DNA of 64,000 nt from Candidatus Aminicenantes bacterium (GCA_963725825.1 CAVSAI010000020.1:26995-90994); one strand, 5' to 3'; counted from the stretch's first letter, positions 6,658 through 57,047 are shown. Translations and numbers: made by a program. The notes: generated from the letters alone by a model not told the origin.

Positions 6658-8703
6658 ATGAAAAAGATCCTTATCATCGATTACGACCAGAATTCCCTGG
6701 CTTCCCTGCAGGGGATCCTTGCCGGGCAAGGCTACCAGGTCGTGACCGCGGCCGACGGCCAGAGCGGGTGGGACAAGTACAACAAGGAATCCCCCGACCT
6801 CGTCCTCATGGAGGCCATGCTGCCCAAGGTCCACGGTTTCGAGCTCTGCCAGAGGATCACGTCCGAACGAAATTCGCAGGCGACGGTCTTTATCATGACC
6901 GGGGTCTACAAGGACCGCGTCTATCGGACCGAGGCCCTGCGGACCTACGGGGCCTCGGAGTATTTCGACAAGCCCCTCAAGATGACCGAGCTCCTGGCTT
7001 CGGTCGAGGCCGTCCTCGGCAAGCCCGAGCCCCGGCCAATCGCCGAAAAGGCGGCCCCCGAGCCTTCGGTCCAGGCCCCCCCCGTCCGCGAGATCCGTCC
7101 GGAGCCCGCCCCGGCCGAACCGCGGAAGCGCGAAAGGCCGAAGTCCGACGACAGCATCTTTTCCCTCCCGGACGACCTCGACCGCATAAGCCGGGAGATG
7201 CCCAAGCCCCGCAAGCCCGTCCCGGCGCGCCGCGAGCCGGCCACCGAGTCGAGGCTCGACGCGAAGGCCGATGAGCTTCTCAGGACGGTCCTCATCGAAG
7301 CGGCGGCGCCCCGGACGGTCCATGCAAAGCCCGGGAAAGGGAACGGGAACGGGAACGGCAACGGCAGCGCCGATATCGACCAGTTCCTGAAGTCCGCCCT
7401 GGCCGGCCTCGACCTCAACAAGGAAAAGGTCAAGGTCCCCAAGACGGCGCCCCTGCCCCCGCCTCCGCCTCCGGCGCCCGAAAAGAAGCCCGTTCCGACG
7501 GCCTCGCGGGCCGCGATCCCGGATCTGAAGCCGGCCCCCGATCCCCAGCCGCGATCCGCCGCGTCCTTCCCGGACCCGGCGATGCGGGACATGAAGAACA
7601 CCCTGACGCCGGGAGATCCCGGGTCCGACATCTCGCCCTTCTTCACCCCCGAAAAGCCGAAGGCGGCCAGGCCGGAGGAGAAGAAGGCGGCGCCCGCGGC
7701 CGAACCCGTCCGCCCCGAGCCCGTCCGCGCGAGCCGGCGCCAGCGCGAGCCGGTGCGGCACGAGCCGACGAAGCACGAGACTGTCCCGCGCGAATCGAAG
7801 GACCGCGAAGCCGGCATCATCGCGGCGGCCGAAATGTTCCAGGGCATCACCGAACAGAAAGAAAAGAAGAGCTTCCCCAAGCTCATCGTGGTCGGCCTCA
7901 TTATCGCGGCCCTGGCCGCCGCCGGGTTCTTCCTCCTCCGGCCCAAGCGTCCCGCCGCGGTCCAAGCAGCCCCCCAGGAAACCTCGCAGGACTTGAGCCC
8001 GGCGAACGAGCCTGCCCCGAAGGTCGAGGAAGCCCCCCGGACCCAGGTCAAACCCGCGCCGGCCAAGCAGAAAGCCCAGCCCCTGGCCAAGCCGGCCGAT
8101 CCCGGCCAGGCCGCGGCCGACGCGATCCTCCCGGCCGGGCCTCCGGCCGCGGCTCTGCCGATGCCGGGGACCCCGCTCGGATCGGGGTCGGGCAACGACC
8201 AGACGGTCTCCGGGACGAGCCCGCAAGGAGCCGACACGGCCGCGGGAAAAGCCGTAGAGACGGCCCCTCCGGCGGCGAAACCGGAGGCGAACCCGCCCCT
8301 GACCGCGGCCGCCGGATCCGGAACGGTTTCGGACCCGGGGATCAAGACCTCCGGACCGGCGCCGACCCCGGTCAATGAGGGCGATCTCATCGAGCTCGGC
8401 GCGGTCACCGAGCCGCCCAAGGTCGTCAAGACCGTCGACCCGGTCTACCCGCAAACGGCCCGGCGGCTGGGCCGGGAGGGCCAGATCACGGTCAACGCCC
8501 TGATCGACGAGAAAGGGAACGTCATCGACACGGGCATTCTCAAGGGCATCCAGGACGACAAGGGACTCGGCCGCGCCGCCGAGATCGCCGTCCGGAAGTG
8601 GAAATTCCAGCCGGCCCGCAAGGACGGCGTCGCGGTCAAGGTCTGGAAATCGTTCGTCATCGCATTCAAGGCCGACACGAACCCGGCCAGCAAGATGGAA
8701 TAA
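6658..8703 (+). CDS. Receiver-domain / Pro-rich linker / TM / TonB C-terminal domain fusion
   Basis: N-terminal KKILIIDYD...PDLVLMEAMLP REC fold; one TM (LIVVGLIIAALAAAGFFLL); C-terminal PVYPQTARRLGREGQITV...AVRKWKFQPA TonB_C. Confidence 0.92.
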   Translation: MKKILIIDYDQNSLASLQGILAGQGYQVVTAADGQSGWDKYNKESPDLVLMEAMLPKVHGFELCQRITSERNSQATVFIMTGVYKDRVYRTEALRTYGASEYFDKPLKMTELLASVEAVLGKPEPRPIAEKAAPEPSVQAPPVREIRPEPAPAEPRKRERPKSDDSIFSLPDDLDRISREMPKPRKPVPARREPATESRLDAKADELLRTVLIEAAAPRTVHAKPGKGNGNGNGNGSADIDQFLKSALAGLDLNKEKVKVPKTAPLPPPPPPAPEKKPVPTASRAAIPDLKPAPDPQPRSAASFPDPAMRDMKNTLTPGDPGSDISPFFTPEKPKAARPEEKKAAPAAEPVRPEPVRASRRQREPVRHEPTKHETVPRESKDREAGIIAAAEMFQGITEQKEKKSFPKLIVVGLIIAALAAAGFFLLRPKRPAAVQAAPQETSQDLSPANEPAPKVEEAPRTQVKPAPAKQKAQPLAKPADPGQAAADAILPAGPPAAALPMPGTPLGSGSGNDQTVSGTSPQGADTAAGKAVETAPPAAKPEANPPLTAAAGSGTVSDPGIKTSGPAPTPVNEGDLIELGAVTEPPKVVKTVDPVYPQTARRLGREGQITVNALIDEKGNVIDTGILKGIQDDKGLGRAAEIAVRKWKFQPARKDGVAVKVWKSFVIAFKADTNPASKME

Positions 8704-8714
8704 AGGAGCGGCAA

Positions 8715-8963
8715 ATGGGTCTCAGCAAAGAACAAGAAGAACTCTACAAGAAGACGATGGCCGAGGTGAAGCACCAGCTGGAACATCTCGACGAGGAAGT
8801 CGAGAAGGAGCTCCAGAAGGTCCGCAAGCGCCTGGCCGAGCTCCAGGATTCCAAGAAATCGCTCAAGATGGTCTACGAGGGCACGGCCAAGCTCCTCGGC
8901 ATCGAGCTGGAGTTCGAGGACGGATCCGCCGACGAGACCGCCTCGATACCCAACAAGATGTGA
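8715..8963 (+). CDS. Small acidic coiled-coil hypothetical protein (82 aa)
   Basis: AAGGAG SD right after the upstream stop, ATG 8715; heptad E/K/L pattern. Confidence 0.8.
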   Translation: MGLSKEQEELYKKTMAEVKHQLEHLDEEVEKELQKVRKRLAELQDSKKSLKMVYEGTAKLLGIELEFEDGSADETASIPNKM

Positions 8964-9062
8964 GCCGCCGGCCCGCCCGGACCGTCGACGGCCGGGTCAG
9001 GCCCCTCTTTCCCGACAGGCGATTGACTGCCCCCCCGGGTCTTGGTGTAAACTCCCGTCGCC

Positions 9063-9701: not shown

Positions 9702-9707
9702 CCCTCC

Positions 9708-19363: not shown

Positions 19364-20671
19364 TTGGAAGACATGCTGATCCGCATCGAAAAGATCGTCT
19401 ATCCCGGGAGGCGGCTGGGCCTCAGGGAAGGCAAGGTCGTCTTCACGGACCGCGGGCTTCCGGGCGAGACCGTCGAGGTCGAGGTCTTCAAGGACCGCCG
19501 GAGCTACGCCGAGGCGCGGACGGTCCGGATCGTCGAGCCGTCCCCGGCGCGGGTCGAGCCGCGATGCGCCCACTACCTGGCCTGCTCGCCCTACCAGGAC
19601 ATGGACTACGGCCTCGAGATCGAGGTGAAGCGGACGCAGGTCGTGGAGATCCTGACGCGCGAGCTCAGGAGGCCGGTCAAGCACTTCGAGATGACGCCGT
19701 CGCCGCAGGTCTGGGGCTATAGGAACAAGATCGGACTGCGGGTCCTAAGGGAGGACGGCCAGGCCAAGTTCGTTTACCACGAACCCGGGGAGCAGGAGTC
19801 GTTCGTCGCCGTCGACCGGTGCTATCTCGCCGCGGACCGGGTGAACGATCTCATGACGGGCCTTCTCCGGGCGATCAACGAGGTCCCGCTGCCGACCGTG
19901 GAGGGCGTCGAGATCAGGACGAGCGCGTCGAGCGGCGAGTCGCTCGTCCTCTGCCACCTGGATTCGGAGACGGGGACGGCGGCCGTGTCCGAGGCGTTCG
20001 GCGGGCTCAAGCGCGAGTTCGGCCTGGTCGGGGCGATGGCGTCGATCTTCGACGGGAAGCACTTCCGGGACGAGAAGCTCTTCGGGCGGGACTTCATCGA
20101 AGAGAGGACGGGCGGCCTCGTCTTCCGCGTCGGGGCGCGGTCCTTCTTCCAGACGAACGTCGGCATCCTCGAGCGCGTCTTCGAGGATGTGGCCCACGCG
20201 GCCGGACCGGTGAGCGAGGGGGTCATCGCCGATCTCTATTGCGGGGTGGGGACGTTCGGCCTGTTCCTGGCGAAACGGTCCCGGGAGGTGTTCGGCGTCG
20301 AGCCGGAGGCCGGGAACGTCGCTTTCCTGAAGAAGAACCTGGCCCTCAACGGCATCGGCAACTTCGCCGTCTGCGAAGGGACGGCCGAGGAGTGGCTGCC
20401 GGAGATCCTGCAGCGCGAGCCGGCCGTCGTCGTCCTCGACCCGCCGCGCCGGGGCGTCGATCCGGGGATCGTGAGCGAGCTCGTCGACGATCCGGTGCCG
20501 CGGATCATCTACCTGTCCTGCAACCCGACGACGCTGGCCAGGGACCTCAAGGGGTTCCTCGCGGGCTACGACCTCGTCGATGTCCGGGTCTACGATTTCT
20601 TCCCGCACACCCCGCACATCGAGACCCTGGCCGTCCTCGACCGGCGCAAGCCCGAGATCATCGCCATATGA
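19364..20671 (+). CDS. rlmD: 23S rRNA (uracil-5-)-methyltransferase, TRAM domain
   Basis: GYRNK, SFFQTN, DLYCGVG, DPPRRG, YLSCNPTTLARD, DFFPHTPHIE. Confidence 0.9.
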   Translation: MEDMLIRIEKIVYPGRRLGLREGKVVFTDRGLPGETVEVEVFKDRRSYAEARTVRIVEPSPARVEPRCAHYLACSPYQDMDYGLEIEVKRTQVVEILTRELRRPVKHFEMTPSPQVWGYRNKIGLRVLREDGQAKFVYHEPGEQESFVAVDRCYLAADRVNDLMTGLLRAINEVPLPTVEGVEIRTSASSGESLVLCHLDSETGTAAVSEAFGGLKREFGLVGAMASIFDGKHFRDEKLFGRDFIEERTGGLVFRVGARSFFQTNVGILERVFEDVAHAAGPVSEGVIADLYCGVGTFGLFLAKRSREVFGVEPEAGNVAFLKKNLALNGIGNFAVCEGTAEEWLPEILQREPAVVVLDPPRRGVDPGIVSELVDDPVPRIIYLSCNPTTLARDLKGFLAGYDLVDVRVYDFFPHTPHIETLAVLDRRKPEIIAI

Positions 20672-22773
20672 GGACGTCGGCGGGCCGGAGGGGATTTGAC
20701 CCGAGGACGATCCTGGCGCCCGGCTCGGTCGGGACGGCGAAGGGCCGCGACGAATAGTTGACGGCGACGAAGAAGCCGTCGCGCCACTCGACATAGACGC
20801 CCGGCGGATAGGATGCGGGCCCGGCGCCGGCCCGCTCATAGACGAGGTGCACAACCTCCCGTTCGAGCGATCCGTCGATGGTGTCGGCCCCGATGTAGGT
20901 CACGGTGCCGCGGCCGAGCCTGCGGGTCACGACGGCCGGCTTGCCGGCATAGAATTGATCGGCGTAGACGGCGAGCGTCTCCGTTCCCCCGGCGGGCTTG
21001 AGGACATCCGCCCACGTATTCCAGGCGTAGCCCTTCCCGCCCATCCGGACGACTCCCTTGTCATCCGCGAGCAGACAATCGAAGAGCTCGACCTCGGCTC
21101 CGATGAGCGGCGCGACGAGCCCGGCCCAGGGCATCTCCGGGAGCTGGCCGCTCTTCGTTTTTTGACCCGTCCGGCAGGTCAGGACGAGGTGTCCTCCGCT
21201 CTCGACATACCGCGTCCACTTCGCGACGAGAGCTTCGTCGACGAGCTGGTAGGCCGGGGCGACGAGGAAGGGATAGGCCGAGAAGTCGTCCGCCTCGCCG
21301 ACGTAATCGAGCGGCGCGCCGGCCGCCTTGATCGCGGCCATGAGCTTGAAGCGGTGGTCCCAGGTGTTCCAGAGCTCGGTCTGCTTATGGATCTCGAGGT
21401 CCCACATGACGTCTTGGCTCCAGAGGAAGGCCGTCCGCCGCGCGGCGATCCGCTCCGGCATCCTGGCGGCCGGATCGTAGAGCTTGCGGATCTCCTTCAT
21501 TTCGGAGATGACGCGGGCGAATTCGAGACCGCCCGGCGACGGCGTGACGCCGTCCGGGCCGACGATCCCGGCGTGATAGAGCTCGCTGCCGTAGAGCGGC
21601 TGGCGGAAGCGGTAGGTGCAGGCGAACGAGAGGCCGCCGCCGAACGCGTGCCACAGCCACATGCGGACGGCCCCGGGCTCGGGCTGGGGATTCGTCTTGG
21701 CCCAGTTGACCTGGCCCGGCTGAAGCTCCATGACGCCCGTGACGCCCTTGAAGGACCGGAAATAGTCGACGGCCATGGCCAGCCGCCAGGGGTTGCCCAG
21801 CCGGAAGCCGAGCTCGCCCAGGTTCTTCTCGCCGCGCACGGGGTACATGGTGAAGGAGATGAAGTCGAGCCTGTCGGTCCGCCGCGGGTCGGCCGAATCG
21901 GTGACGTTCATGTAGTTCGTCGTGATCCACTGCTCGGGACGCGCGAGCCCGCGGAGGATGTCATATTGGAGGTGGAGGTATTCGGCCTGCGTGTCGGCCG
22001 TGAAGCGGCGGAAATCGAGGACGGCGTGCGGGCTCAGGGCGTCCTCGCCGAAGAGGGTCTCGTTGGGGATGAGGACCTGGGCGAAGGAATCGTACTTTGG
22101 TGCTCCAGAAGGCGCCGCCCCAGGCCGCGTTCATCTTTTCGACCGTGCCGTACTTGCGCTCGAGCCAGGCCTGGAACTTGAGCCGGGCCGAGGGGCTGTA
22201 GTCGGGCGGGCCGTAGGGCTCGTTGTCGAGCTGCCAGCCCCAGACGCGCGGGTCCTGCCCGTAGCGGCGGCCGAGCTCGGCCACGATCCTCTTGGTGTAA
22301 CGGACGAAGACGTCGTTCGCGAGCGACACATTGGCGCGCGTGCCGTGCTCCAGGCGACGGCCGTCTCCGCGGACGAGGTAGATCTCCGGGAATTTCTCCC
22401 CGAGCCAGGCCGGCGGACAGGGCGTCGGGGTGCACAGGATGACTTTGAGCCCGGCGCGAGCGGCCAGGTCGACGGCCCGGTCGAGCCAGGCGAAATCGAA
22501 GGTGCCGTCGGAGGGCTCGAGGAAGGCCCAGGCGAATTCCCCGAAATGAGTGAACTCGAAGCCGAGGTCGGCGATCTTCCGCAAGTCGCGCGCCCATTCC
22601 GACTCGGGCCACTGCTCGGGGTAGTAATAGACGCCGATCTTCATCAGGTCGGCCTTGGGGAAAAAGCGCTGGGCCTCGGGAGAAGACGCCGGAGCGGGCG
22701 GCCTGGCGAAGGACAGAGCGGCCAGCAGGAATGGGACGACGAGCGTCGAGACGCGAGCGCGATTCTCTTTCAT
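20658..22773 (-). CDS. GH42 beta-galactosidase with signal peptide (frameshift near 22097)
   Basis: GVYYYPEQW, GEFAW, WQLDNEP, MELQPGQVNW, trimerisation domain; one extra A breaks the frame. Confidence 0.92.
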
Positions 22774-22793
22774 GGTTTGGCTCCTTGCCGGTC

Positions 22794-39516: not shown

Positions 39517-41188
39517 GCTGGAACCGGACGGTCACTGTGAAGACGACGGGTACCGCTTTGCCGTTGATGACCGTCGGCTCGTAGACCCACTGTCTGACGG
39601 CGTCGATGGCCGCTTGGTCGAGGAGCGGGATCGACCGCAACACCATGACATCGCTGACGCTGCCTTTTTCGTCGGCCCTGACGCTGAGGATGACGACGCC
39701 CTGGACGCCGGCGACCCGGGCGGCCTCGGGGTAGACCGGAGCGGCTTCTTTGATCTGCTTGGGCGGTTCGATGTCGCCCTCGGCTTTGACTGCACCTTGG
39801 GCGAATTTCTCGATCGTTTTAGCCTTGTCGCCTTCCTTGAGCATGAAGCGGACCGTCACGGTGAAAAGCACCTTGCGGCGCTTGCCGTCGATGACCAGGG
39901 GTTCGTACTTCCACTGCTTGACGGCGTCGATGGCCGCCTGGTCGAGGACAGGGATGGAGCGCAGGATCCGGCTGTCGACGACGTTGCCCTCCTCGTCGGC
40001 CTTGGCCTCGAGGATGACCATGCCTTCCACACCCGCTTTGGCGGCTTCCTTCGGATATACCGGGTCCACACTCTTGACGAGCTTGGGCGGCTTGACCTCT
40101 CCGACCGCCCGGACGGCGTCTCCTTCGAACTTTTTGAGGTCTTGGGCGCCTCCGACCCCGCCGAGGACGCCCCCGGCAACGCCGCCTTCGACGCCCGCGG
40201 CGACTCCTCCGCCGATGCCCGTGGCTACGCCGCCGGTGACGCCGCCGACGACCCCGCCGCCGGCCGGCTTCTTGTCCTTGTCGAGGCCGAACCTGACGGT
40301 CACGGTAAAGGTCACATCCCTGGGCTTGCCGTCGACGACCATGGGCTCATAGACCCACTGCCTGACCGCGTCGATGGCCGCCTGATCGAGGAGCGGGATC
40401 GAGCGCAGGACCTTGACGTCGGCGATCCGCCCATACGTGTCCGTCGTGGCCTCCAGGATCACGACGCCTTCGACCCGCGCCTTCCGCGCCGCTTCGGGAT
40501 AGACGGGCGCGACCTCCTTGACGAGCTTGGGCGGCATGACCTTTTCGCCGCTCTTCAGCACGCCGGGGACGACCCCGCCCGCGGCCCGACCCCCACCTTC
40601 CGCCGCGGCGGCCGGCTCGCCGAGCCAGCGGGCGACCCGAAGGGTGATGAAATAGGACTTGAGCTTAGTATCTTCGAAGCCGAAAACGGCGGCGCTCTTG
40701 TCCGGGAGGGAGAATTCCGTGTCCAGCAGGCTGGCCTTGCCCGCCGCGCTCTGCTCGAAGACCTGGATATGGAAGTGGTTGCGTTCGGGCAGGCGGCCCG
40801 GAGTGACCATGACCAGGTATTCCTGCCCGTTGATCCGGAACATATGGAAGGCCTTTTCGGTCTTCCTCTTTTCCCAAACGAGGGCGGCCTCGGTCAGAAG
40901 GCCGATGTCCGTCAGGCTGAAGACCTTTTTGATCTGCTCGTCCGTGGCCGTGTTTTCCTCATCCTCGAAATTGGCGAAAGTCTGGAATTCGAGGAATGAC
41001 GAGGTGACGGGCCGGACGAGGGTCTTGGATCGATCCCGACTCCCCTGGAGGATCCGCATATTCAGCTCGAAGGCCGAAGCCGTCAACTTGGCGCTCTGCG
41101 CGGCATCGTCTTCTCCGGCCGAGGCCCAAACGGCCAGGCCCGATCCCGCGAGAGCGAGCGTCACGAATATTATGAGCGCATTTTTCAT
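39509..41188 (-). CDS. TonB family protein with three tandem TonB C-terminal domains
   Basis: Signal/TM, unknown N-domain, three PVYP...LRSIPxLDQAAIDAV(R/K)QWxYEP repeats, GGV-rich linker. Confidence 0.92.
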   Translation of the reverse strand: MKNALIIFVTLALAGSGLAVWASAGEDDAAQSAKLTASAFELNMRILQGSRDRSKTLVRPVTSSFLEFQTFANFEDEENTATDEQIKKVFSLTDIGLLTEAALVWEKRKTEKAFHMFRINGQEYLVMVTPGRLPERNHFHIQVFEQSAAGKASLLDTEFSLPDKSAAVFGFEDTKLKSYFITLRVARWLGEPAAAAEGGGRAAGGVVPGVLKSGEKVMPPKLVKEVAPVYPEAARKARVEGVVILEATTDTYGRIADVKVLRSIPLLDQAAIDAVRQWVYEPMVVDGKPRDVTFTVTVRFGLDKDKKPAGGGVVGGVTGGVATGIGGGVAAGVEGGVAGGVLGGVGGAQDLKKFEGDAVRAVGEVKPPKLVKSVDPVYPKEAAKAGVEGMVILEAKADEEGNVVDSRILRSIPVLDQAAIDAVKQWKYEPLVIDGKRRKVLFTVTVRFMLKEGDKAKTIEKFAQGAVKAEGDIEPPKQIKEAAPVYPEAARVAGVQGVVILSVRADEKGSVSDVMVLRSIPLLDQAAIDAVRQWVYEPTVINGKAVPVVFTVTVRFQLK

Positions 41189-41197
41189 GTCACCCTC

Positions 41198-41677
41198 CTA
41201 TAAAGGATTCCTGGAAGCCCAGACGAAGACCGTGTCCGTCCCCTGGGGCTGATAGACGAACGTCCGGGCGGGAGCGCCGCCCACGTTGACATAGTCGATC
41301 TGGAAGCGGTCGGCGGTCACGACGTCCCGCGCATCGAGGCCCGTCCGCTCGATCTCCCGGAGAAGCCAGAACCCGGTCAAGGCGACGACGGCCGCCATGG
41401 CCGCGACCGAGGCGGCGCGCCAGGCCAGTGTCCCCCGACCGGCTTTGATCTCGGGCAAGGACGCGGCCCGTCCCGCCTCGCGGGAGATCCTCCGCCAGAG
41501 GTCCTCCGATCCGCCCACTTGTTCCGGGCCGACGAGCAGGCTCTTGGCCTCGTCGCGACTGAGAAGCCGGGCCTGACACCGCGGGCATCGTTCCATGTGG
41601 GCCCGGATGAGCCAGTCGCGGAACGGCCGAACGGGAATCGCGGTGTAAAGCCGATCAACCGTTTTGCAGGACGTCAT
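41198..41677 (-). CDS. zf-HC2 type anti-sigma factor, single TM
   Basis: HMERCPRC motif, TM, directly downstream of an ECF sigma. Confidence 0.85.
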   Translation of the reverse strand: MTSCKTVDRLYTAIPVRPFRDWLIRAHMERCPRCQARLLSRDEAKSLLVGPEQVGGSEDLWRRISREAGRAASLPEIKAGRGTLAWRAASVAAMAAVVALTGFWLLREIERTGLDARDVVTADRFQIDYVNVGGAPARTFVYQPQGTDTVFVWASRNPL

Positions 41678-42245
41678 GATCGTTCTCCAAAAGCGCTTTG
41701 ATCTTTCGCCGGGCGTTGAAGAGATACACCCGGGCTGTCGAGGCCGAGCAGGACAAGACTTCCGAGACGTCCTTGGCCGTATAGCCCTCGTTGGCCCACA
41801 GGCACAGCGCCGTCCGCTCGCGCGGCGAGAGGGACTCGAGCAGCTTGGAGGGCAGGGGCGCGGGATCGGCCGGCCGGGGGTCCCCTCCCCTCCCTGCCAC
41901 GGCCGGCTCGAACCGGGCCCGGGCCGAGAATTCCGAGAAGCGCCGTCGTTTTCTGAGCATGTCGAGCGATCTCCTGTAGGCGATGGTCAGGAGCCAGGTC
42001 TTGAAGCTCCTCTCCCGGTCATAGCGGTCGAGGCGCCGGAAGACCTGGAGAAAGGTCTCCTGGCAGACGTCCTCGGCGTCCTGCCTGTTGCCGAGAACGT
42101 TGAGGGCGACCGACAGGACCAGGGTCCCGTACGCCTCGACCATCGCCCGCTGGGACGCAAGGCTCTCCGCCAGGCAGCCTTCGATCAACTCTTGCTCATC
42201 CACAGGAGGCCTTGTCCCTTCTTCCATCGGAGAATACGCCGGCAT
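41655..42245 (-). CDS. ECF RNA polymerase sigma factor
   Basis: DAEDVCQETFL, FKTWLLTIA, region 4 LSPRER...LFNARRKI. Confidence 0.93.
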   Translation of the reverse strand: MPAYSPMEEGTRPPVDEQELIEGCLAESLASQRAMVEAYGTLVLSVALNVLGNRQDAEDVCQETFLQVFRRLDRYDRERSFKTWLLTIAYRRSLDMLRKRRRFSEFSARARFEPAVAGRGGDPRPADPAPLPSKLLESLSPRERTALCLWANEGYTAKDVSEVLSCSASTARVYLFNARRKIKALLENDHDVLQNG

Positions 42246-42402
42246 CTCCCCCGTCGTTTAGGGGCCTTTCCCTCTGTCTTATTCCTACACCTTTCTTCAT
42301 GAGGTGTCACCTCTATCTGAATGTCCTCGGAGGGCCTTCTCCTGCCGGAAGTGCGGAACTGGATGATTAAGGAAGGGCCTTGCTCCTATTGAACCGAGGC
42401 GA

Positions 42403-42639: not shown

Positions 42640-43617
42640 ATGAGCCGGTCCGAACACGCCAAGCCGAAAAAGAGCGCTTCTTGCCGGCCGGCCGCATTCA
42701 AGGGCCGGAACGGCGAGGATCGCTACAAGGCCCTCCTCGAACAGCTTCCCGTCGGCGTCTACCGCACGACCGCCGAAGGCCTCATCGTCGAGGCCAATGC
42801 GGCCCTGGCCCACATGCTCGGCTTCAGGCGTCCCCGGGACCTGTTCACCCACAACGTCAAGGATTTCTATGTCCACGGCGAGGACCGGGCCAAGCACATC
42901 GTCAAGCTGTGCGCGAAGCGCACGGCCTTCCAGGAATTCGAGCTCCGGCGGATCGACGGCCGGAAGTTCTGGGCCCGGGATTTTTGCCGCAGCATCAAGG
43001 CCCCGGACGGGTCGATCATCCATCTCGACGGCATCCTCGTCGAAATCACGGAGATGAGGAACGCCGAGCGGCGCTTCCAACAGGCCGTGCGCCAGCTCCA
43101 GCTGTCCAACGAGAAGCTCGAGAACCTGTCGCTCACCGACCACCTGACCGGGCTCAACAATCGCCGGGGGTTCTATTCCTTCGGGCTGCAGCAGATGAAG
43201 ATCGCGAAACGGCTCAAGAAGGACAATTATCTCATCTTCATCGATATCGACAATTTGAAAGAGGTCAACGACACCTGCGGCCATGCCGTGGGGGACCTGC
43301 TTCTCCAGGGAATGGCCGCGATCCTCAAGACGACGCTGCGCGAGTCCGACGTCCTCGGCCGCATCGGCGGCGACGAGTTCGCCGTCCTGGCCATGCGTTC
43401 GAAGGGCCAGGGTGAACGGGGCCTTCCGGCCCGGATCGAGGAGGGCGTCCAAGCGTTTCGCCTCAAGAAATACCCGCGTCTGCGGCTGTCGGTCAGCATG
43501 GGCCTCGTCCGCATCGACCCCCAAAAGTACCAGCAGCTCGACGATTTCCTGTCCCACGCCGACTTCCTGATGTACCAGGAAAAAAGAAAGAAAGAACGAC
43601 AAGGAAAAACTCCATGA
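42640..43617 (+). CDS. PAS-GGDEF diguanylate cyclase
   Basis: PAS, TDHLTGLNNRR, RESD I-site, intact GGDEF; TTGACA at 42602-42607. Confidence 0.95.
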   Translation: MSRSEHAKPKKSASCRPAAFKGRNGEDRYKALLEQLPVGVYRTTAEGLIVEANAALAHMLGFRRPRDLFTHNVKDFYVHGEDRAKHIVKLCAKRTAFQEFELRRIDGRKFWARDFCRSIKAPDGSIIHLDGILVEITEMRNAERRFQQAVRQLQLSNEKLENLSLTDHLTGLNNRRGFYSFGLQQMKIAKRLKKDNYLIFIDIDNLKEVNDTCGHAVGDLLLQGMAAILKTTLRESDVLGRIGGDEFAVLAMRSKGQGERGLPARIEEGVQAFRLKKYPRLRLSVSMGLVRIDPQKYQQLDDFLSHADFLMYQEKRKKERQGKTP

Positions 43618-46550
43618 CCAAGCTCCGTTCCCTCTCCTTATCTCTCGCGGCTATCGCCGTGATTCTCACCTCCGGCCTTTTCGCGCCCGCTCAAGATGAC
43701 CCGCGCCCAAACGCGGCCCCGTCAGCAACCCTGGCATCCGCGCCGCGGCCGCTCGCGCTGCTGGACATCCTGGCCTGGAAATCGATCGGCTCGGCCGAGC
43801 TCTCCCCCGACGGGACCTGGTTCATGTACCGGCTCAGCCCGCTCGAAGGCGAGAGCGAGATCGTCTTGCGCCAGGTCGCCGGGACCAAGGAATACCGTTT
43901 CCCGATCGGCGAGGCCCCGCGCTACGGATCGTCCGCCCGCACGGGCTTCTCGGCCGACTCCAAGTGGGCCGCGTTCCTCGCCTACCCCGGGTCGAAGGAG
44001 ATGAAGGCGCTGCGGAAGGACAAGAAGAGGGTCATGACGGCGGCCGTCCTGGTCGACCTGGCCACGGGCGGGAAGACCGAGTTCGAGAAGGTCCGCGCAT
44101 GGGCTTTTTCGGGCGACAACCCCGGCTTCGTGGCCCTCCATCGCTATGCCCCCGAAAGCCAGGAGAAGGAGAAGGACAAGTGGACCGGCTCCGACCTCCT
44201 TGTGCGCCAGCTCTCTTCGGGGCAAGAGGTCAACATCGGCAACGTCTCGGAGTACGCTTTCGACAAGGCCGGGACGCGCCTGGCCCTGGCCATCGACGCC
44301 CAGGGCCAGGCCGGCAACGGCCTCCAGCTCCGGGACATGGCTTCCGGCGCCGTCTCGTCGCTCGATAACGACAAGGCCTCCTACAAGTCCCTGTCCTGGA
44401 CTGAGAAGGGGGAAGCCCTGGCCGTGCTCAAGGGCAAGGAAGACAAGGCCTATGAGGACAAGCTCTGGAGCGTCCTCGGCTTCTCCGGTTTCCGTGAGGC
44501 CCGAGGACCGCGGATGATCGTCTACGATCCGGCCGCCGACAAGTCGTTCCCGGCGGGAATGACCGTCAGCCCGGACAGGGCCCCGGAGTGGACGGAGAGC
44601 TTCGACGCCGTGCTCTTCGGCATCCACGAGGCCAAAAAGAAAAAGGACGCCGATAAAAAGGAGGGCGACCAGGCCAAGCCCGGATCGGATGCGGCCGCGG
44701 CGCCGGCCCCGAAGGTCGAGGACGTCGCCGACGAGGACATCCCCGACCTCGTGATCTGGCACGGTCAGGACGCCCGGCTGCAGTCCGAGCAGCAAGTCGA
44801 GGAACAACAGGACCGAAGCTTCAGCTATCTCGCCGAGTTCCGGGTCGGCAACAAGGCGTTCGTCCGACTGGCCGATGACGATCTTCGTTACGTCGAGCCT
44901 GCCCCCAAAGGCCGATTCGCCGTCGGCCAGGACAGGCGGGCCTACGAGCTCGACGGGAATCTCGACGGCCGAAGCTTCCGGGACGTCACCGTCATCGATA
45001 TGGCAACCGGCAAGCGGACCAAGGCCCTCGAAAAGAACCAATACTATTTCGGGACCCTTTTTGACGGGGCCCATTTCCTGTATTACGAGGACGGCCACTT
45101 TTTCACCTACGACATGGCGGGCGGCCGGTCCGTCAACATCACCAAGGACGTCCCCGCCTCGTTCTTCAACGAGGAGGACGACCACAACGTCGTCAAGCCG
45201 CCCGACTACCCGGTCGGCTCGACCAAGGACGGACGGAATGTCCTCCTCTCGGACGGCTGGGACATCTGGAGCGTTCCCGTCAGCGGAGCCGGCAAGGCCG
45301 TCAACCTGACCGCGAACGGGGCCAAGGACAAGCTCCGCTACCGGCGTCTGCGTCTCGATCCCGAGGAGAAGGCCGTCGACCTCGGGGAGGCCCAGTACTT
45401 CAGCGTTTACGGCGAGTGGACCAAGAAAGCCGGGATCGCCCGCCTCGAAAAGGGCCAGCCCGCCCCGGCGCTCTTGTTGTGGGACGATGCCGGATTCGGC
45501 AATCTGGCCAAAGCGAGAAAGGCCGAGGTCTACGTCTACGCCCGCGACACGTTTAAGGATTATCCCGACTTCGTCGCGGCGGACGCGCTCCTCCGCAACG
45601 GAAAAAGGCTCACCGAGGCCAATCCCCAGCAGAAGGATTTCCTGTGGTCGAGCGGCTCGATGCTTCTCGATTACACGAGCGCCAAGGGCGACAAGCTCCA
45701 GGCCGCGCTCTTCCTCCCGGCCAACTATGAAAAGGGCAAGAGCTACCCGACGATCGTCTACTATTACGAGAAGATGTCGCAGCAGCTCAACCGCTACGCC
45801 CAGCCCTCGGCCAACGGCTTCAATAAATCCGTTTACACCAGCAACGGCTACGCCGTCCTGTTCCCCGACATCACCTACAAGATCAACGACCCGGGCATGT
45901 CGGCGGTCTGGTGCGTCCTGCCGGCGATCGACGCGGCCGTGGACGCGGGCGTCGTCGACCGATCCAAGATCGGCCTCCAGGGCCATTCGTGGGGCGGCTA
46001 CGAGACGGCCTTCCTCGTGACCCAGGCCGATTTCGCCGCGGCCGTGGCCGGAGCGCCGCTGACCAACATGATCAGCATGTACAGCTCGATCTATTTCAAC
46101 AGCGGCTCGGCCAACCAGCCCATCTTCGAATCGAGCCAGGGCCGGTTCAAGGGCGGCTACTGGGACAATCTCGAGGCCTATCAGCGGAACTCTCCGGTTT
46201 ATTACGCCTCCCGGGTCAAGACCCCGCTCATCATCCTCCACAACGACAAGGACGGCGCCGTCGACTGGAACCAGGGCATCGAGTACTACAACACCCTGCG
46301 CCGGCTCAAGAAGCCGGTCGTCATGCTCCAGTACGTCGGCGAGAACCACGGCCTGCAGAAGCCGGCCAACCAGAAGGACTATACCGTGCGGATGAAAGAG
46401 TTCTTCGACCACCATCTCATGGGCAAGCCGGCCCCGGCCTGGTACACGGAGGGCGTCTCCTACCTCAAGCTCAGGGACTATCTCAAGGAGAGGGCCAAGG
46501 ACCTCAAGCCTGCGGAAAAAGCCCCAAAGAAGGACGCCGAGGGAAAGTAG
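43614..46550 (+). CDS. S9 family peptidase (prolyl oligopeptidase/dipeptidyl aminopeptidase)
   Basis: Signal peptide, beta-propeller, GHSWGG, DGAV, ENHG catalytic triad. Confidence 0.95.
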   Translation: MTKLRSLSLSLAAIAVILTSGLFAPAQDDPRPNAAPSATLASAPRPLALLDILAWKSIGSAELSPDGTWFMYRLSPLEGESEIVLRQVAGTKEYRFPIGEAPRYGSSARTGFSADSKWAAFLAYPGSKEMKALRKDKKRVMTAAVLVDLATGGKTEFEKVRAWAFSGDNPGFVALHRYAPESQEKEKDKWTGSDLLVRQLSSGQEVNIGNVSEYAFDKAGTRLALAIDAQGQAGNGLQLRDMASGAVSSLDNDKASYKSLSWTEKGEALAVLKGKEDKAYEDKLWSVLGFSGFREARGPRMIVYDPAADKSFPAGMTVSPDRAPEWTESFDAVLFGIHEAKKKKDADKKEGDQAKPGSDAAAAPAPKVEDVADEDIPDLVIWHGQDARLQSEQQVEEQQDRSFSYLAEFRVGNKAFVRLADDDLRYVEPAPKGRFAVGQDRRAYELDGNLDGRSFRDVTVIDMATGKRTKALEKNQYYFGTLFDGAHFLYYEDGHFFTYDMAGGRSVNITKDVPASFFNEEDDHNVVKPPDYPVGSTKDGRNVLLSDGWDIWSVPVSGAGKAVNLTANGAKDKLRYRRLRLDPEEKAVDLGEAQYFSVYGEWTKKAGIARLEKGQPAPALLLWDDAGFGNLAKARKAEVYVYARDTFKDYPDFVAADALLRNGKRLTEANPQQKDFLWSSGSMLLDYTSAKGDKLQAALFLPANYEKGKSYPTIVYYYEKMSQQLNRYAQPSANGFNKSVYTSNGYAVLFPDITYKINDPGMSAVWCVLPAIDAAVDAGVVDRSKIGLQGHSWGGYETAFLVTQADFAAAVAGAPLTNMISMYSSIYFNSGSANQPIFESSQGRFKGGYWDNLEAYQRNSPVYYASRVKTPLIILHNDKDGAVDWNQGIEYYNTLRRLKKPVVMLQYVGENHGLQKPANQKDYTVRMKEFFDHHLMGKPAPAWYTEGVSYLKLRDYLKERAKDLKPAEKAPKKDAEGK

Positions 46551-51748: not shown

Positions 51749-51773
51749 GGGATCTCCCTGCTCGGCGCCGCCG

Positions 51774-52217: not shown

Positions 52218-53301
52218 CGGGGCCTCCTGTCTCCGCGGGCTTGGATTGGCTCGCGGGCCGGGCCTTTTCCAGGGCCGCGGCCTCGGCCGCGAGGAGCCGG
52301 AAGCGGTCGGAGGGGATGGTCCGGGATTTCCGGAACAAGGTCCGCGCCCGGCGCTCTTCGTGCCCGGAGAGGTTGCCGAAGACCTCCTGCTCCCGGTCCT
52401 CGGGATTCCGTTTGAAGAACTCCTCGAATTTCGCCTCCGGCAGGATGCCGCGGCCCCGGAGCGTCCGCAGCATGGCCCGGGTGCTCACCCCGAAGTAGCG
52501 CTTGAGGAACAGCACGTCGTCGAACGCCAGCGTCCTCGCGTGAAGGTCCTTCTCGATGAGCTCGGAGAGCTTGTCCGGCGGCACAAGAAAGCGCGAGGCG
52601 AAAGTCTGGGCGGACTGCTCGCGCGGCGAGTAGAGAGAGACGTACTCGTCGACGAAGACATCGGGGTTATCGACGACGGGGCTGTCGGCCCGGTCCATGA
52701 GGTAATGGCCGTAGAGATGGGCGGCGATGAAGGTCTGGAGCCCGGGCGGCTCGTTCGCGTTGATCAGCGCGAACGCGGCCTTGCGCTCCTCGTCGAAGAC
52801 GAACAGGCCCGCGATCCGGGCTTCGTCGGAGATCGTCTGGCGGACGATGCGGCAGCCGTTGACCTCACAGAGTCCCATGACATCGCGGATGGGCTCGCCG
52901 CCGAGCCCGAGGCGCCGCCGTTCTTCCTCGGCCAGACGCTCCGGGGAGATGCGGGGGTACAGCGGCGCGAGGTCGAGGCGGCGCCCGGTCGCCTCTTCGA
53001 GCTCGAGGTATCTTTCGCACGTGGCCCGGAATTTCTGCAGGTCCTTGCGGACCCGCTCATCGGCCTCCGCGGCGTCGAACAGGGCCTCGAAGGCCGGCCG
53101 CCTGTCCTCGAAGAAATAGGCGATATTCTTGTTGAGGAACCCCGCGACCTTCTGGAGCGTCTCGAAGCTCGGCGTCCTCTTGCCGGATTCGAGGAGGGAG
53201 ATGTATTCCGATGACAGTCCGAGGGACTTGGCGAACGCGCCCTGGCTGAGGTTGACCTCTTCGCGAGCCCTCTTGAGTCGTGTCCCGAGAAGCTTGTCCA
53301 T
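52210..53301 (-). CDS. XRE HTH + ImmA/IrrE-like domain regulator
   Basis: RLKRARE..LSQ..YISLLESGKRTPS HTH; FIAAHLYGHY and EQSAQTFASRFLVP M78-like domain. Confidence 0.9.
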   Translation of the reverse strand: MDKLLGTRLKRAREEVNLSQGAFAKSLGLSSEYISLLESGKRTPSFETLQKVAGFLNKNIAYFFEDRRPAFEALFDAAEADERVRKDLQKFRATCERYLELEEATGRRLDLAPLYPRISPERLAEEERRRLGLGGEPIRDVMGLCEVNGCRIVRQTISDEARIAGLFVFDEERKAAFALINANEPPGLQTFIAAHLYGHYLMDRADSPVVDNPDVFVDEYVSLYSPREQSAQTFASRFLVPPDKLSELIEKDLHARTLAFDDVLFLKRYFGVSTRAMLRTLRGRGILPEAKFEEFFKRNPEDREQEVFGNLSGHEERRARTLFRKSRTIPSDRFRLLAAEAAALEKARPASQSKPAETGGPDE

Positions 53302-53328
53302 GGCGGCGCACCCCTGGGCGGCCTGGGC

Positions 53329-53410
53329 AGGATAACATGAGGTTAGCGGTCTGTCAACATGCCGCAGCGGCAAAAATAACGATTGACAATTCACGGGCTC
53401 CCCTTAGAAT
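53329..53410. promoter_or_regulatory. Back-to-back sigma70 promoters
   Basis: Minus strand TTGACA(53357-53352)-N17-TATCCT(53334-53329); plus strand TTGACA(53383-53388)-N16-TAGAAT(53405-53410). Confidence 0.7.
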
Positions 53411-53432
53411 GAGAGAAAACCAAGGAATGATC

Positions 53433-54386
53433 ATGGCCGAAGACAATATCCTCGATGTTTTTCCGGGTGCGTCCAAGAGCATCTGCGACAACGTCCTCAA
53501 CCAGGTCCAGGATGCGGTCGTCTGGCTCAACCGCGACCGCAAGGTCGTCTACTGGAACAACGCGGCCGAAGAGATCACGGGACGCGACGCCTCGGCCGTT
53601 CTGGGGAGGGCGTGCTTCGAAGAACCCGCCTTGTTCGTGGATCTCGGCGGCGTCAACATCTGCCGCGACAAGTGCCCCGTGGCCATGACCCTGCAGGACG
53701 GCGCCCCGCGCTCGCTCGAGGTCTATCTCGAGCACAAAGAAGGGTTCCGGACGCCGGCGGCCTTGCGGATTATCCCGGTGTTCAACGACGCGGGCGAGGT
53801 CCTCGGGGCTGTCGAAACGTTCTCCAGCACCGCCCCAAAGGTCACTCTGCCCCTCGGCCTGGCCGAGCTCGAGAAGATGGCCCTCGTTGACAACGAGACG
53901 GGCATCCCCTCGAAGCAGTACCTGGACATGACCCTGGCCACCCGCCTCCAGGAGTTTCAGAAGTACGGCCTGTCATTCGGCCTGATCTACGCCGATATCG
54001 ACAACTACGGCAAGATCCTCGAGAAGCACGGCCGGTTCAACGCCGGCAAGATCGTCCGGACCGTCGCCAGGACCCTGCACAAGAACATCCGCTTTTTCGA
54101 CATCGTCGGCCGCTGGAGCGCGGAGGAGTTCCTGATCGTCCTCTTGAACATCGATGACGGCCGGCTGGACATCGTCGCCAACAAGCTCCGTCTCCTGATC
54201 TCCGAATCCTACATCACGACCGAAACGGGCATGCTCAACGCGACGGTGTCCATGGGGGCCAGTCTCGTCCTTCGCTACGACACCGTCGAATCCCTGATCA
54301 AGCGGGGCGAGCAGCTCATGATGCACAGCAAGTGGCTGGGCAAGAACCGCGTCAGCATGAGCTTCGTCCAGAAGGAGATGATCTAG
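53433..54386 (+). CDS. PAS + degenerate GGDEF domain protein
   Basis: WNNAAEEITG PAS; DNETGI, DIDNY, active site reads GRWSAEEF. Confidence 0.88.
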   Translation: MAEDNILDVFPGASKSICDNVLNQVQDAVVWLNRDRKVVYWNNAAEEITGRDASAVLGRACFEEPALFVDLGGVNICRDKCPVAMTLQDGAPRSLEVYLEHKEGFRTPAALRIIPVFNDAGEVLGAVETFSSTAPKVTLPLGLAELEKMALVDNETGIPSKQYLDMTLATRLQEFQKYGLSFGLIYADIDNYGKILEKHGRFNAGKIVRTVARTLHKNIRFFDIVGRWSAEEFLIVLLNIDDGRLDIVANKLRLLISESYITTETGMLNATVSMGASLVLRYDTVESLIKRGEQLMMHSKWLGKNRVSMSFVQKEMI

Positions 54387-54392
54387 ACAAGG

Positions 54393-54427
54393 GCCCCCTT
54401 CCCCGGGGGGGGTGCGGGAAAGGGGGC
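54393..54427. terminator. GC-rich hairpin between convergent genes
   Basis: GCCCCCTTCCCCG...CGGGAAAGGGGC; no strong U-tract. Confidence 0.35.
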
Positions 54428-54445
54428 GGGAACAGAAGAGGAGGG

Positions 54446-55312: not shown

Positions 55313-55456
55313 GTTATTCCCCTTGTACAAGAACCATTATCGGGCGGAGGGCCGGGGCCTTCAATCGCCGCGGGTGATGAATTTGGGGGGGATGGTCCTC
55401 ACCCCCCGAGGGGAACCCGGGGGCCCGCCGCCTGGGACGGGCCCCTCCCCGACCGC

Positions 55457-56455
55457 TTACTTCAGCTGGAACCGGACGGTCACGGTGAAGACGACCGGCC
55501 GGGGCCGCCCGTTGATGATCATCGGCTCGTAGACCCACTGCCGGACGGCGTCGATGGCCGCCTGGTCGAGCAGGGGGATGGAGCGGAGGACCTTGACGCT
55601 CGTGACCCGCCCGTAGACGTCCGTCGTCGCCTCGACGATGACGATGCCCTCGACGCGGGCCTGGCGGGCGATCTCCGGATAGACCGGGGCCACTTCCCGG
55701 ACGAGCTTGGGCGGCTTGACGTCGCCGATGGCCCGCACAGGCGCTTCGACCTCGCCGACGACGCCTCCCAGGACGCCGCCGACGACTCCGCCGAGCACGC
55801 CGCCGACGACTCCGCCCTCGACGCCGCCTTCGACTCCGCCCTCGACGCCGACGTCGGAGAGCGTTTCCTCGGCGATCTGCTCAGGGATCTCGACGGGGGC
55901 GACGAGGCGGCCCGCCTCGGTCGGAGCCGCGGCCTGGACGCGCTTGATGCGCGCGCTCGTCGACGCCGCCTTGCGCTTGGCCGGCGGCGGCGGAGGGGGC
56001 GGCGGCGGGGGCGGGGGCGCGAGGAACGCGCTGTAGACCTCGACGGTCGGCAGATCCCCTGTGTTAAGGAGAGGAAGAACGATGAGAAGGACGATGACGG
56101 CGACGTGGGCCACTAGAGACAGCGGGAGCAAGACGGCCTTCTGTCTTGTCCGTTTCTCCGGCTGATAAAATGAATCCTTGAACATTCGAACCTCCGCGAC
56201 TCGCGATGCGGGGGCTCCGGCCTGCTCGCGGGCGATCCCGGCCCGGACGCGTCCGGGGAAAGAGTCCCAGTAGTCCCGGTCTTTCGGACCAGGGGGAGAC
56301 GCCTCGGCCATCGTCGCGATCTTGCGGATGAACTCGAGGTCCCGCCGGCACTCCGGGCAAGTCTTGAGATGCTTCTCCACCCGGGGCCGGTCGGCCGCCC
56401 GGAGCTCGCCGTCGGCGAAGGCCCCGATGAGTTCCTGGAGTTTTCGGTGTCTCAT
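55457..56455 (-). CDS. zf-HC2 anti-sigma factor fused to a TonB family protein
   Basis: FADGEL..HLKTCPEC; TM with SLVAH; poly-Pro; GGVEGG repeats; TonB_C. Confidence 0.9.
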   Translation of the reverse strand: MRHRKLQELIGAFADGELRAADRPRVEKHLKTCPECRRDLEFIRKIATMAEASPPGPKDRDYWDSFPGRVRAGIAREQAGAPASRVAEVRMFKDSFYQPEKRTRQKAVLLPLSLVAHVAVIVLLIVLPLLNTGDLPTVEVYSAFLAPPPPPPPPPPPPAKRKAASTSARIKRVQAAAPTEAGRLVAPVEIPEQIAEETLSDVGVEGGVEGGVEGGVVGGVLGGVVGGVLGGVVGEVEAPVRAIGDVKPPKLVREVAPVYPEIARQARVEGIVIVEATTDVYGRVTSVKVLRSIPLLDQAAIDAVRQWVYEPMIINGRPRPVVFTVTVRFQLK

Positions 56456-56456
56456 C

Positions 56457-57047
56457 TCAAGCTCCCCTTCCGAGGGAATCCGCCAGGAGCTCCTTCAGCT
56501 TCTGGCGGGCCCGGTTGAGCCGCGACATGACGGTGCCGAGCGGCAGGCCGAGGGTCCGTGAGATCTCCTCGTAGCTCAGGCTCTCGTGAAACCTCAGGAC
56601 GAAGACGCTTCTCTGATCGGCGGGAAGGGATTCCACCGCCCTTTCGAGCCGGGCCTGGAATTCCGCGCTCTCCAGCTGCCTCTCGGGGTCGTCGCCCTTT
56701 GGGGCCGACGGCATGCGCCGGCCGCCGGGCGAGTCGTCTTCGAGCGGCACCTCCCGGCCCCGCGATTTGAGGTAGTTGAGCCCGGAGTTGACAGCGATCT
56801 TCCTGAGCCAGGGGTAGAGAGGCCATTGGGCATCGAACCTTTCCAGCGCGAAGTAGGCCTTGATGAATGTCTCCTGGGCGAGGTCGTCGGCGGACTGGTG
56901 CGCGCCGGTGAGCCGGCGGCACAGGGCGTAGACCCGTTGCTGGTATCTCCGGACCAGGCTCTCATAAGCGTCCATGTCTCCCTGCTGGGCTTTCCTGACG
57001 AGGACGGCATCCTCCGGATGCTCGTTCGGTCTCGTCGGAGCTCCCAT
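56457..57047 (-). CDS. ECF RNA polymerase sigma factor
   Basis: LVRRYQ, ADDLAQETFIKAY, WLRKIAVN, LSYEEI..GTVMSRLNRAR. Confidence 0.95.
   Translation of the reverse strand: MGAPTRPNEHPEDAVLVRKAQQGDMDAYESLVRRYQQRVYALCRRLTGAHQSADDLAQETFIKAYFALERFDAQWPLYPWLRKIAVNSGLNYLKSRGREVPLEDDSPGGRRMPSAPKGDDPERQLESAEFQARLERAVESLPADQRSVFVLRFHESLSYEEISRTLGLPLGTVMSRLNRARQKLKELLADSLGRGA

Follow-up and report, generated by a model that had tools for sequence, protein, structure and literature searches.

Two extracytoplasmic function (ECF) sigma factor modules in a 64-kb stretch of a Candidatus Aminicenantes genome have TonB built into their anti-sigma apparatus. In the first, switch A, a zinc-type anti-sigma domain is fused to a complete TonB. 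In the second, switch B, the gene for the anti-sigma factor, AS1, is followed by one for an exported protein bearing several TonB C-terminal (TonB_C) domains, which is predicted to dock on AS1. We read both as ECF switches whose anti-sigma factors reach into the periplasm by means of the cell's own TonB and there sense the TonB boxes of transporters, and we give this reading a probability of about 45%. In the FecI/FecR/FecA system the anti-sigma factor reads the signalling domain of the receptor, while TonB supplies energy only, and we know of no trans-envelope signalling from TonB-dependent transporters other than through such receptor-specific signalling domains and FecR-type regulators. If the reading is correct, outer-membrane transport would be linked to transcription by a second route of a generic kind, in which TonB itself, or its docking domain, is wired to a sigma factor, and there would be a natural case of a regulator held matched to its target by gene conversion.

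The window (the whole 64-kb stretch analyzed, G000:C20:26995-90994, GC ca. 66%) comes from a 2.89-Mb genome, G000, which is in 60 contigs and 70% complete. It was compared with an order-level sample of 41 genomes including G000, of which 25 belong to a single genus and 16 to eight other families of its order. Related loci are recorded as coming from Candidatus Aminicenantes metagenome-assembled genomes, and every organism concerned is uncultured. A preliminary description of this DNA had placed TonB_C beside or inside regulators at three loci, and Pfam returns the claimed domains at each of them (Table 1); a profile search of the whole of G000 gives seven TonB_C matches over five open reading frames (ORFs), three of which lie within the window. 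All three loci are kept across nine families of one order. They had been called independent and do lie apart from one another, but the TonB_C domains that they carry are closely paralogous (55-80% identity), and the loci are therefore evolutionarily non-independent. As had also been stated, the window contains no exbB, exbD or receptor gene: the Pfam families ExbD, MotA_ExbB and Plug are all without a match in the 64 kb. Across the whole 70%-complete genome, ExbD has one match, MotA_ExbB none and Plug ten, all on contigs other than that of the window.

A zinc-type anti-sigma domain fused to a complete TonB

The fusion protein of switch A begins with an anti-sigma domain of ca. 85 amino acids, followed by an MFKDSF motif, a transmembrane (TM) helix containing a histidine, a poly-proline segment, a glycine-rich linker and TonB_C. 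Alignment with housekeeping TonBs places the junction at TonB's own N-terminal MF(K/Q)DSF motif. The linkage of ECF sigma and anti-sigma genes described for this locus stands, but the anti-sigma protein carries a complete TonB rather than TonB_C alone. The sequence hallmarks of a TonB transducer are present, namely a single TM helix with a conserved histidine, a proline-rich spacer and a C-terminal TonB_C domain, as are those of zinc-type anti-sigma factors (ZAS), namely zf-HC2 in the N-terminal anti-sigma domain and a neighboring ECF gene, which lies directly upstream in eight of the nine genomes examined. The conserved TM histidine of TonB belongs to an SxxxH motif (H20 in E. coli TonB); it is kept in all 21 sequences aligned (nine fusion proteins, in which the window's copy reads LSLVAHVAV, eight housekeeping TonBs and four TonBs of a third type described below). 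Residues 78-332 of the fusion are 86.7% identical to the 257-amino acid TonB that is linked to exbB and exbD in a congener. In relatives this housekeeping tonB, with exbB-exbD after it, sits behind yajC-secD-secF, a locus missing from the incomplete G000; the fusion locus has no exbBD.

Matches that include the anti-sigma N-terminus occur in at least 30 of the 41 genomes (23 at full length, 7 cut by contig ends). In a draw of 401 genomes from the phylum, matches to the entire N-terminal 140 residues were restricted to this order; two genomes of the draw (G089 and G192) have weak matches to the anti-sigma domain only, and no conclusion here draws on them. A look-alike anti-sigma factor in the sister order, with a nearly identical N-terminal sequence (MRH[RK]KIK…) to that of the Aminicenantales fusion, bears a periplasmic TPR/YfiO (BamD-like) domain in place of TonB in three of three genomes (G067, G083 and G185; loci L112, L113 and L114). 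The TonB body therefore looks like an order-specific replacement of a periplasmic sensor domain, and the sequences suggest that the fusion arose by a domain swap between TPR/YfiO and TonB. A protein-collection search with fusion residues 1-140 returned two proteins only, and a search with the whole fusion was dominated by multi-TonB_C proteins, with zf-HC2 and TonB_C together in only two of the 120 matches listed.

The fused TonB tracks the housekeeping TonB of its own genome

Compared within single genomes, the fusion and the housekeeping TonB are almost the same in their periplasmic half. In genome G024, the two proteins share 98% identity in the linker and 100% in the C-terminal domain, with 51% in the TM region; in G025 the corresponding values are 100%, 99% and 46%. 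Six further genomes give 85-95% (linker), 82-94% (C-terminal domain) and 29-49% (TM region). Between genomes, mean identity is 73% among fusion proteins and 79% among housekeeping TonBs. In trees, the fused TonB part clusters with the lineage's own housekeeping TonB. None of 200 bootstrap trees united the fused parts in a single clade, and the approximately unbiased (AU) test rejects such a clade (log-likelihood difference 142.7, p 6.6e-6). Because these loci have in common their anti-sigma domain, the sigma gene upstream and the promoter, the sequences are most simply read as the outcome of one fusion event, after which the periplasmic half underwent recurrent gene conversion.

Predicted targets of sigma 2: its own operon and an orphan tonB

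The motif GGAATA-N14-KTGTWW lies just upstream of ECF2, the sigma gene of switch A, in G000 and in six related loci. In this genus 5 nt separate the end of the -10 element from the sigma gene's ATG, a distance which suggests that the mRNA is leaderless or nearly so; in other families the -10 element is followed by a GGGAGC box and then a later ATG. Genome-wide, G000 has three matches to the motif, against about one in composition-preserving shuffles. One is the promoter of ECF2 itself and another lies directly upstream of a third tonB paralogue, P0005, which is about 50% identical to the fusion and is an orphan in that neither exbB nor exbD was found beside it. The remaining match, at C20:121449, was rejected as a chance occurrence, there being no gene within about 300 bases.

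The same pairing, with the motif before both the ECF2 operon and the third tonB, is found in six genomes (G000, G018, G024, G027, G032 and G039), and in G018 these two sites are the sole matches genome-wide. By comparison, the motif has no match in eight housekeeping tonB loci (66 kb). The third tonB is directly downstream of the fusion gene in G027, 3.7 kb downstream in G032 and ca. 51 kb away in this genus (L078, L068 and L069). Sigma 2 is thus predicted, from the shared motif, to transcribe its own operon and the orphan third tonB, rather than the tonB linked to exbBD.

Divergent from ECF2 lies a cluster of genes for extracellular electron transfer (57257-63985; members in Table 1). We rejected a link between switch A and these cytochrome/MtrB genes, which have no BLAST match in five longer loci of other families and are not preceded by the ECF2 motif.

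An anti-sigma factor encoded with an exported multi-TonB_C protein

Switch B consists of the genes for ECF1, AS1 and an exported protein in which a signal peptide and a conserved, beta-rich N-domain precede the TonB_C domains. The N-domain (ca. 180 amino acids) has no Pfam match and is present in 33 of the 41 genomes. This gene order was seen in 20 of the 21 loci read, the last being cut by a contig end that leaves AS1 partial, so that in both switches the linkage between sigma gene, anti-sigma gene and TonB_C is conserved. The number of TonB_C copies per protein varies over the 21 loci, with three in 15, two in four, one in one and four in one, the count for locus L096 coming from a fragmented ORF.

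AS1 has the ZAS features of an HxxxCxxC motif and an ECF gene alongside (20 of 21 loci), and is predicted to bind the sigma factor. Its score against the NCBIfam "antisigma" model is 6.6e-9, under that model's cut-off. Seven residues are invariant in the alignment of 21 orthologues: H27, C31 and C34, together with F125, P136, A137 and W153.

Upstream of ECF1, the motif TAAAC-N17-(G/A)CGTA occurs in ten of the ten longer related loci scanned. The first in-frame ATG of ECF1 (42245) falls within this promoter and is covered by the conserved motif, so the ATG at 42227 is the likelier start; orthologues in relatives have 181-190 amino acids. G000 has two genome-wide matches, against a shuffle mean of 5.6: one at the operon itself and one at C46:6818, which we rejected as a chance match since it lies antisense inside a gene. 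The predicted ECF1 regulon is therefore the operon alone, and switch B is predicted to be autoregulated.

Two further genes, for a LiaF-like membrane protein and a 264-amino acid protein without a family, are convergent with the multi-TonB_C gene and face its 3' end, in an arrangement that is kept across families, and they may form a further, envelope-stress part of switch B. They bear on the idea that TonB_C domains are structural tethers to peptidoglycan or the outer membrane, and report or maintain envelope architecture instead of transporter state. The conserved LiaF-like gene would fit such a role, and TonB-like domains do occur in envelope machines: the accessible parts of two reports describe a periplasmic TonB-C domain in GltJ of the Myxococcus gliding machine (PMC11135422) and a TonB-like protein tied to septal structure (PMC8262864). 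We nevertheless think tethering very improbable, as the domains nearly duplicate the housekeeping TonB domain, which serves ca. ten Plug-domain transporters, and do not form a diverged subfamily.

Genes for PAS-GGDEF diguanylate cyclases (42640-43617 and 53280-54386, both on the plus strand) flank both sigma modules. The first is divergent from ECF1, as it also is in the two congeners that could be read far enough (L099 and L100), and just past it is the gene for a 978-amino acid S9 prolyl oligopeptidase (43614-46550, plus strand).

Predicted docking of the exported protein on AS1

An AlphaFold2 (AF2) model of the N-domain has a predicted local distance difference test score (pLDDT) of 73.4 and resembles no known fold closely. 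The best Foldseek match in the PDB has an E value of 7.5e-3, the protein atlas gave no usable match, and the best hit of a VIA search was a secretin pore chain (Z 6.8, root-mean-square deviation 4.3 over 105 residues), in a search where typical unmatched models reach 7-8. When modeled together, the N-domain and the first TonB_C show no confident packing and are separated by a disordered linker (pLDDT 64.6, predicted template modeling score 0.53).

Docking of this two-domain segment with the periplasmic tail of AS1 (residues 108-159) was then predicted. The score was 0.71 (runs 0.71, 0.67 and 0.73), against 0.00 for the best of three controls; among solved complexes 58 of 80 attain this mark, and among mismatched pairs 2 of 110, counts that apply only approximately here. 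The runs share at least 89% of their contacts, with a partner pLDDT of at least 64. The predicted interface comprises AS1 residues 123-134 and 147-155 and residues 58-66 and 128-148 of the N-domain chain. These are the most conserved stretches of both partners, LLDTEF…AVFGFED in the N-domain and two conserved strands in the AS1 tail. The exported protein is thus predicted to dock on the tail through its N-domain, which would make the TonB_C domains the distal, input-side part. The AS1 tail (…GTDTVFVWA) resembles the TonB boxes of G000 transporters, which had prompted the idea of a pseudo-TonB box bound by TonB_C; this idea was dropped, the predicted interface being entirely on the N-domain.

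Docking bears on the main competing explanation, in which the TonB_C parts are effectors and not sensors. Sigma 1 would answer some other envelope signal and the exported protein would compete for TonB boxes and throttle import, for instance as a defence against bacteriocins, phages or metal overload, while sigma 2 would merely tune the supply of TonB paralogues. Because the ECF1 motif was found only at its own operon, the multi-TonB_C protein could indeed be an output such as a TonB competitor: its operon is the sole predicted ECF1 target in G000, identity between its TonB_C domains and the working TonB domain is 55-80%, and the predicted targets of sigma 2 are TonB genes. Periplasmic TonB fragments reportedly block TonB-dependent transport in E. 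coli, as Howard et al. are said to have found in 2001. On the other hand, docking of the N-domain on the anti-sigma tail, as predicted, fits a co-sensor and not a free decoy, and further ECF1 targets may be missing because G000 is only 70% complete. The two roles are also mutually compatible. On balance, we regard a purely effector role as unlikely.

The signal could instead be cytoplasmic. The HxxxCxxC zinc motif of both anti-sigma factors would then sense thiol oxidation or zinc in the manner of RsrA, with the TonB body or AS1 tail as a mere anchor. The zf-HC2 match of the fusion (1.8e-10), the invariance of H27, C31 and C34 in the 21 AS1 orthologues and a weak NCBIfam RsrA match (3.5e-5, under the cut-off) all agree with this. 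A plain anchor, however, needs neither a complete TonB that matches the housekeeping copy at 98-100% identity in its periplasmic part nor a conserved periplasmic tail with a predicted partner, and many membrane-bound zinc-type anti-sigma factors, RsiW among them, are under proteolytic rather than redox control. We consider cytoplasmic sensing quite improbable.

A model for sensing TonB demand

In our preferred reading, in which TonB boxes are sensed through the cell's own TonB, the zinc-type anti-sigma domain of switch A (55457-57078) would have been grafted onto the N-terminus of a complete TonB, with recurrent gene conversion keeping its periplasmic part nearly identical to that of the housekeeping protein. 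The inhibitor would thus meet the same partners, namely ExbD and the TonB boxes of ligand-loaded transporters. In switch B (39509-42260) the anti-sigma factor would have a short tail, on which the co-transcribed exported protein docks with its one to four TonB_C domains as antennae. Many exposed transporter TonB boxes would signify high TonB demand. The TonB_C parts, once engaged or pulled away (in switch A possibly with ExbBD force), would leave the anti-sigma factor open to proteolysis and thereby release the sigma factor; sigma 2 would then raise a back-up TonB and itself, and sigma 1 its own module. Three steps are ones that we infer: that binding of TonB boxes is the signal, that proteolysis frees the sigma factor and that the fusion couples to ExbBD; the last is uncertain because the TM region of the fusion has diverged from that of the housekeeping TonB. 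TonB_C would accordingly be the input domain, as the preliminary description had proposed.

A more specific version of this reading is tentative and, taken as a whole, doubtful: that the system is receptor-independent cell-surface signalling that measures TonB demand, in which the universal TonB box is the transmitted signal, titration of the fusion turns on a back-up tonB, and the second anti-sigma factor behaves alike by way of its adaptor. The reading predicts feedback control of the TonB supply. TonB is unstable without ExbB, and its amount is considered limiting for uptake in model bacteria. Sigma factor, anti-sigma factor, promoter and adaptor are all small enough to be reassembled in a laboratory host, and the idea is testable even though the organisms are uncultured.

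Several points weigh against the reading. Genome G036 has the fusion with no adjoining ECF gene. Paralogues can be converted neutrally, and conversion is not in itself proof of selection for matching partners, and the groups compared in the AU test, though defined by architecture, were tested only after the first tree had been viewed. The TM region of the fusion is merely 29-51% identical to that of the housekeeping TonB. In switch B, the ECF1 motif was seen at its own operon alone in a 70%-complete genome, the docking calibration is approximate because we made the alignments ourselves, and the named docking contacts are confined to the N-domain, so that the TonB_C ligand is our inference. What the sequences and models show are the domain architectures and their conservation, gene conversion, shared promoters and the predicted docking.

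Relationship to known systems

Switches A and B resemble FecA-FecR-FecI of E. coli and Pseudomonas in having an ECF sigma factor, a single-pass membrane anti-sigma factor coupled on its periplasmic side to TonB-dependent transporters (in the switches, on our reading) and an autoregulated pair; they differ in that TonB, or its C-terminal domain on an adaptor, belongs to the anti-sigma system. They would thus act as cell-surface signalling does, but fall outside the FecIRA type. The contrast with that system drawn in the preliminary description is borne out by the matches searched in G000. Neither anti-sigma factor has a Pfam FecR domain, and the FecR matches in the genome are FecR+DUF6600 proteins of 644-770 amino acids. 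STN is matched once, by a PilQ-type secretin that also contains AMIN, Secretin_N and Secretin domains, and neither an STN-bearing transporter nor a FecR-type anti-sigma factor was found in this 70%-complete genome. Relatives have about one STN match per genome, mostly in ORFs of ca. 750-830 amino acids.

Switch B shares its layout with the PUMA3 system (VreA-VreI-VreR) of P. aeruginosa. According to the accessible part of PMC2729926, VreA is exported and has an STN-like N-domain and a C-domain modeled as TolA/TonB-like (9.3% identity to TolA). Both systems pair an ECF sigma factor and a regulator with an exported protein made of a putative regulator-contacting N-module and a TolA/TonB-like C-domain. 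The regulator of VreA, as described there, is FecR-like, whereas switch B has a zinc-type anti-sigma factor, one to four TonB_C domains close to the working TonB, and an N-domain of unmatched fold.

For switch A, a precedent is group ECF255. The portion of the PMC7826278 supplement available to us gives it a putative anti-sigma factor at +1 with one TM helix and an extracytoplasmic TonB_C, for which sensing of Ton-box transporters was proposed; 98% of its members are from Bacteroidetes, the anti-sigma factor additionally bears a carboxypeptidase regulatory-like domain, and TATGGAT/GCATCT is given as promoter. By that description, a TM helix plus TonB_C in the anti-sigma factor is the only feature in common. 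Switch A is set apart from it by its occurrence in Aminicenantes, by zf-HC2 joined to a whole TonB and by the promoter GGAATA/TGTAT; moreover, Pfam finds no domain of the carboxypeptidase regulatory-like kind in the window's anti-sigma factors. The promoter strings resemble those given in the same portion for ECF26/ECF207 (GGAATAAA) in the case of sigma 2 and for ECF03 (TTAAACC) in the case of sigma 1, a likeness of strings that is no test of membership.

As far as these portions of the two sources go, neither precedent demonstrates experimentally that TonB_C is an input. The claim of an undescribed system thus holds in part: the idea is partly in print, in ECF255 (PMC7826278 supplement) and PUMA3 VreA, but we found no zinc-type anti-sigma factor fused to a whole TonB in the literature available to us, and the system is a variant of cell-surface signalling that is new. 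Our literature searches likewise found nothing on TonB/sigma systems of Aminicenantes, on a zinc-type anti-sigma factor fused to a whole, gene-converted TonB (the PMC7826278 supplement being covered up to its earlier groups), on a sigma regulon aimed at a tonB paralogue, on an N-domain-(TonB_C)n adaptor or on a REC-TonB_C protein.

A separate REC-TM-TonB_C protein

The third TonB_C locus encodes a receiver (REC) joined through a TM helix and a Pro/Ala-rich spacer to TonB_C. It had been taken as evidence of receiver signalling, which is unsupported because the acceptor aspartate is absent and there is no neighboring kinase: all nine orthologues that show the N-terminus have glutamate at this position (DLVLMEAMLP), and the conserved neighbors are a papain-family peptidase and a LysE transporter. 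The acidic pocket, threonine and lysine are retained. The protein is found at full length across the genus, and other families have forms of 520-664 amino acids that match at both ends. Among its best 120 relatives in a large protein collection, 118 carry Response_reg and TonB_C and are annotated merely as "TonB family protein".

Judged from its sequence, this is a separate TonB-like transducer with a receiver predicted to be incompetent for phosphorylation. GltJ (AgmX) of the Myxococcus xanthus Agl-Glt gliding machinery has the same layout: as the accessible part of PMC11135422 describes it, a regulatory region in the cytosol is combined with a single TM helix and, in the periplasm, a flexible stretch and TonB-C. 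In GltJ, as described, the cytosolic part is not a receiver and the protein belongs to a motility machine; no such genes were seen beside the locus in the window. By analogy with GltJ, the protein is more likely to be controlled from the cytoplasmic side than to be a sensor.

Table 1. Features of the two switches, the REC-TM-TonB_C locus and adjoining genes. Positions are counted from the first letter of the window unless a contig is named.
Feature	Position	Strand	Basis and remarks
REC (pseudo-receiver)-TM-Pro/Ala-rich spacer-TonB_C protein, 681 aa	6658..8703	+	Pfam Response_reg 4-116 (5.7e-20), TonB_C 595-671 (3.2e-16)
LiaF-like membrane protein	37607-38299	+	Pfam LiaF-TM, LiaF-like_C; in 8 of 10 longer related loci
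264-aa protein without a family	38304-39098	+	In 9 of 10 longer related loci
Exported multi-TonB_C protein, 559 aa	39509..41188	-	Signal peptide, N-domain (ca. 36-190), three TonB_C (Pfam 2.6e-62), Gly-rich linkers
AS1 anti-sigma factor, 159 aa	41198..41677	-	No Pfam match; HxxxCxxC, one TM helix, conserved periplasmic tail of ca. 50 aa
ECF sigma factor 1 (ECF1)	41655..42227 (ORF to 42245)	-	Pfam Sigma70_r2 (1.1e-21), r4_2
Predicted ECF1-type promoter, TAAAC-N17-CGTAT	42234..42260	-	Kept upstream of ECF1 in related loci read
Anti-sigma::TonB fusion, 332 aa	55457..56455	-	Pfam zf-HC2 6-37 (1.8e-10), TonB_C 256-331 (2.6e-19)
ECF sigma factor 2 (ECF2)	56457..57047	-	Pfam Sigma70_r2 (3.1e-17); RpoE/SigW-like NCBIfam models nearest, below cut-offs
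Predicted ECF2-type promoter, GGAATA-N14-GTGTAT	57053..57078	-	Motif kept upstream of ECF2 in 7 loci, 6 families
Multihaem cytochrome	57257-58174	divergent from ECF2	Part of the electron-transfer cluster
MtrB/PioB-type porin	57808-60402	divergent from ECF2	E 5.6e-95
Cytochrome b561-like protein	60390-61184	divergent from ECF2	Part of the electron-transfer cluster
At least 3 further multihaem cytochromes	61172-63985	divergent from ECF2	Part of the electron-transfer cluster
Third, orphan tonB paralogue P0005	G000:C20:134719-135501 (outside the window)	-	ECF2-type motif directly upstream, at C20:135521(-)

Expression traces and other genes of the window

In public RNA libraries, 16 runs contain small shares of the window, at most 0.09 of the words sampled. 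RNA contigs at 85% likeness from four libraries cover 55434-57108, with no depth seen beyond that span, and single contigs span the boundary between ECF2 and the anti-sigma gene in three runs from three studies (X1, X4 and X12). These contigs, which are from relatives and may have DNA among them, cannot establish that there is a transcript; they are no more than compatible with co-expression of the two genes.

Elsewhere in the window, a GH42 beta-galactosidase appears to be split into two ORFs (20658-22917, minus strand), with the first 181 profile positions in 21961-22917 and profile positions 251-376 plus the trimerization domain in 20658-21911. A frameshift, a pseudogene or a fault of the assembly may account for the split. 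The start of the window encodes a tricorn-like protease with PD40 repeats (1-2715, minus strand) and an M48 peptidase with zinc ribbons (2837-4576, plus strand).

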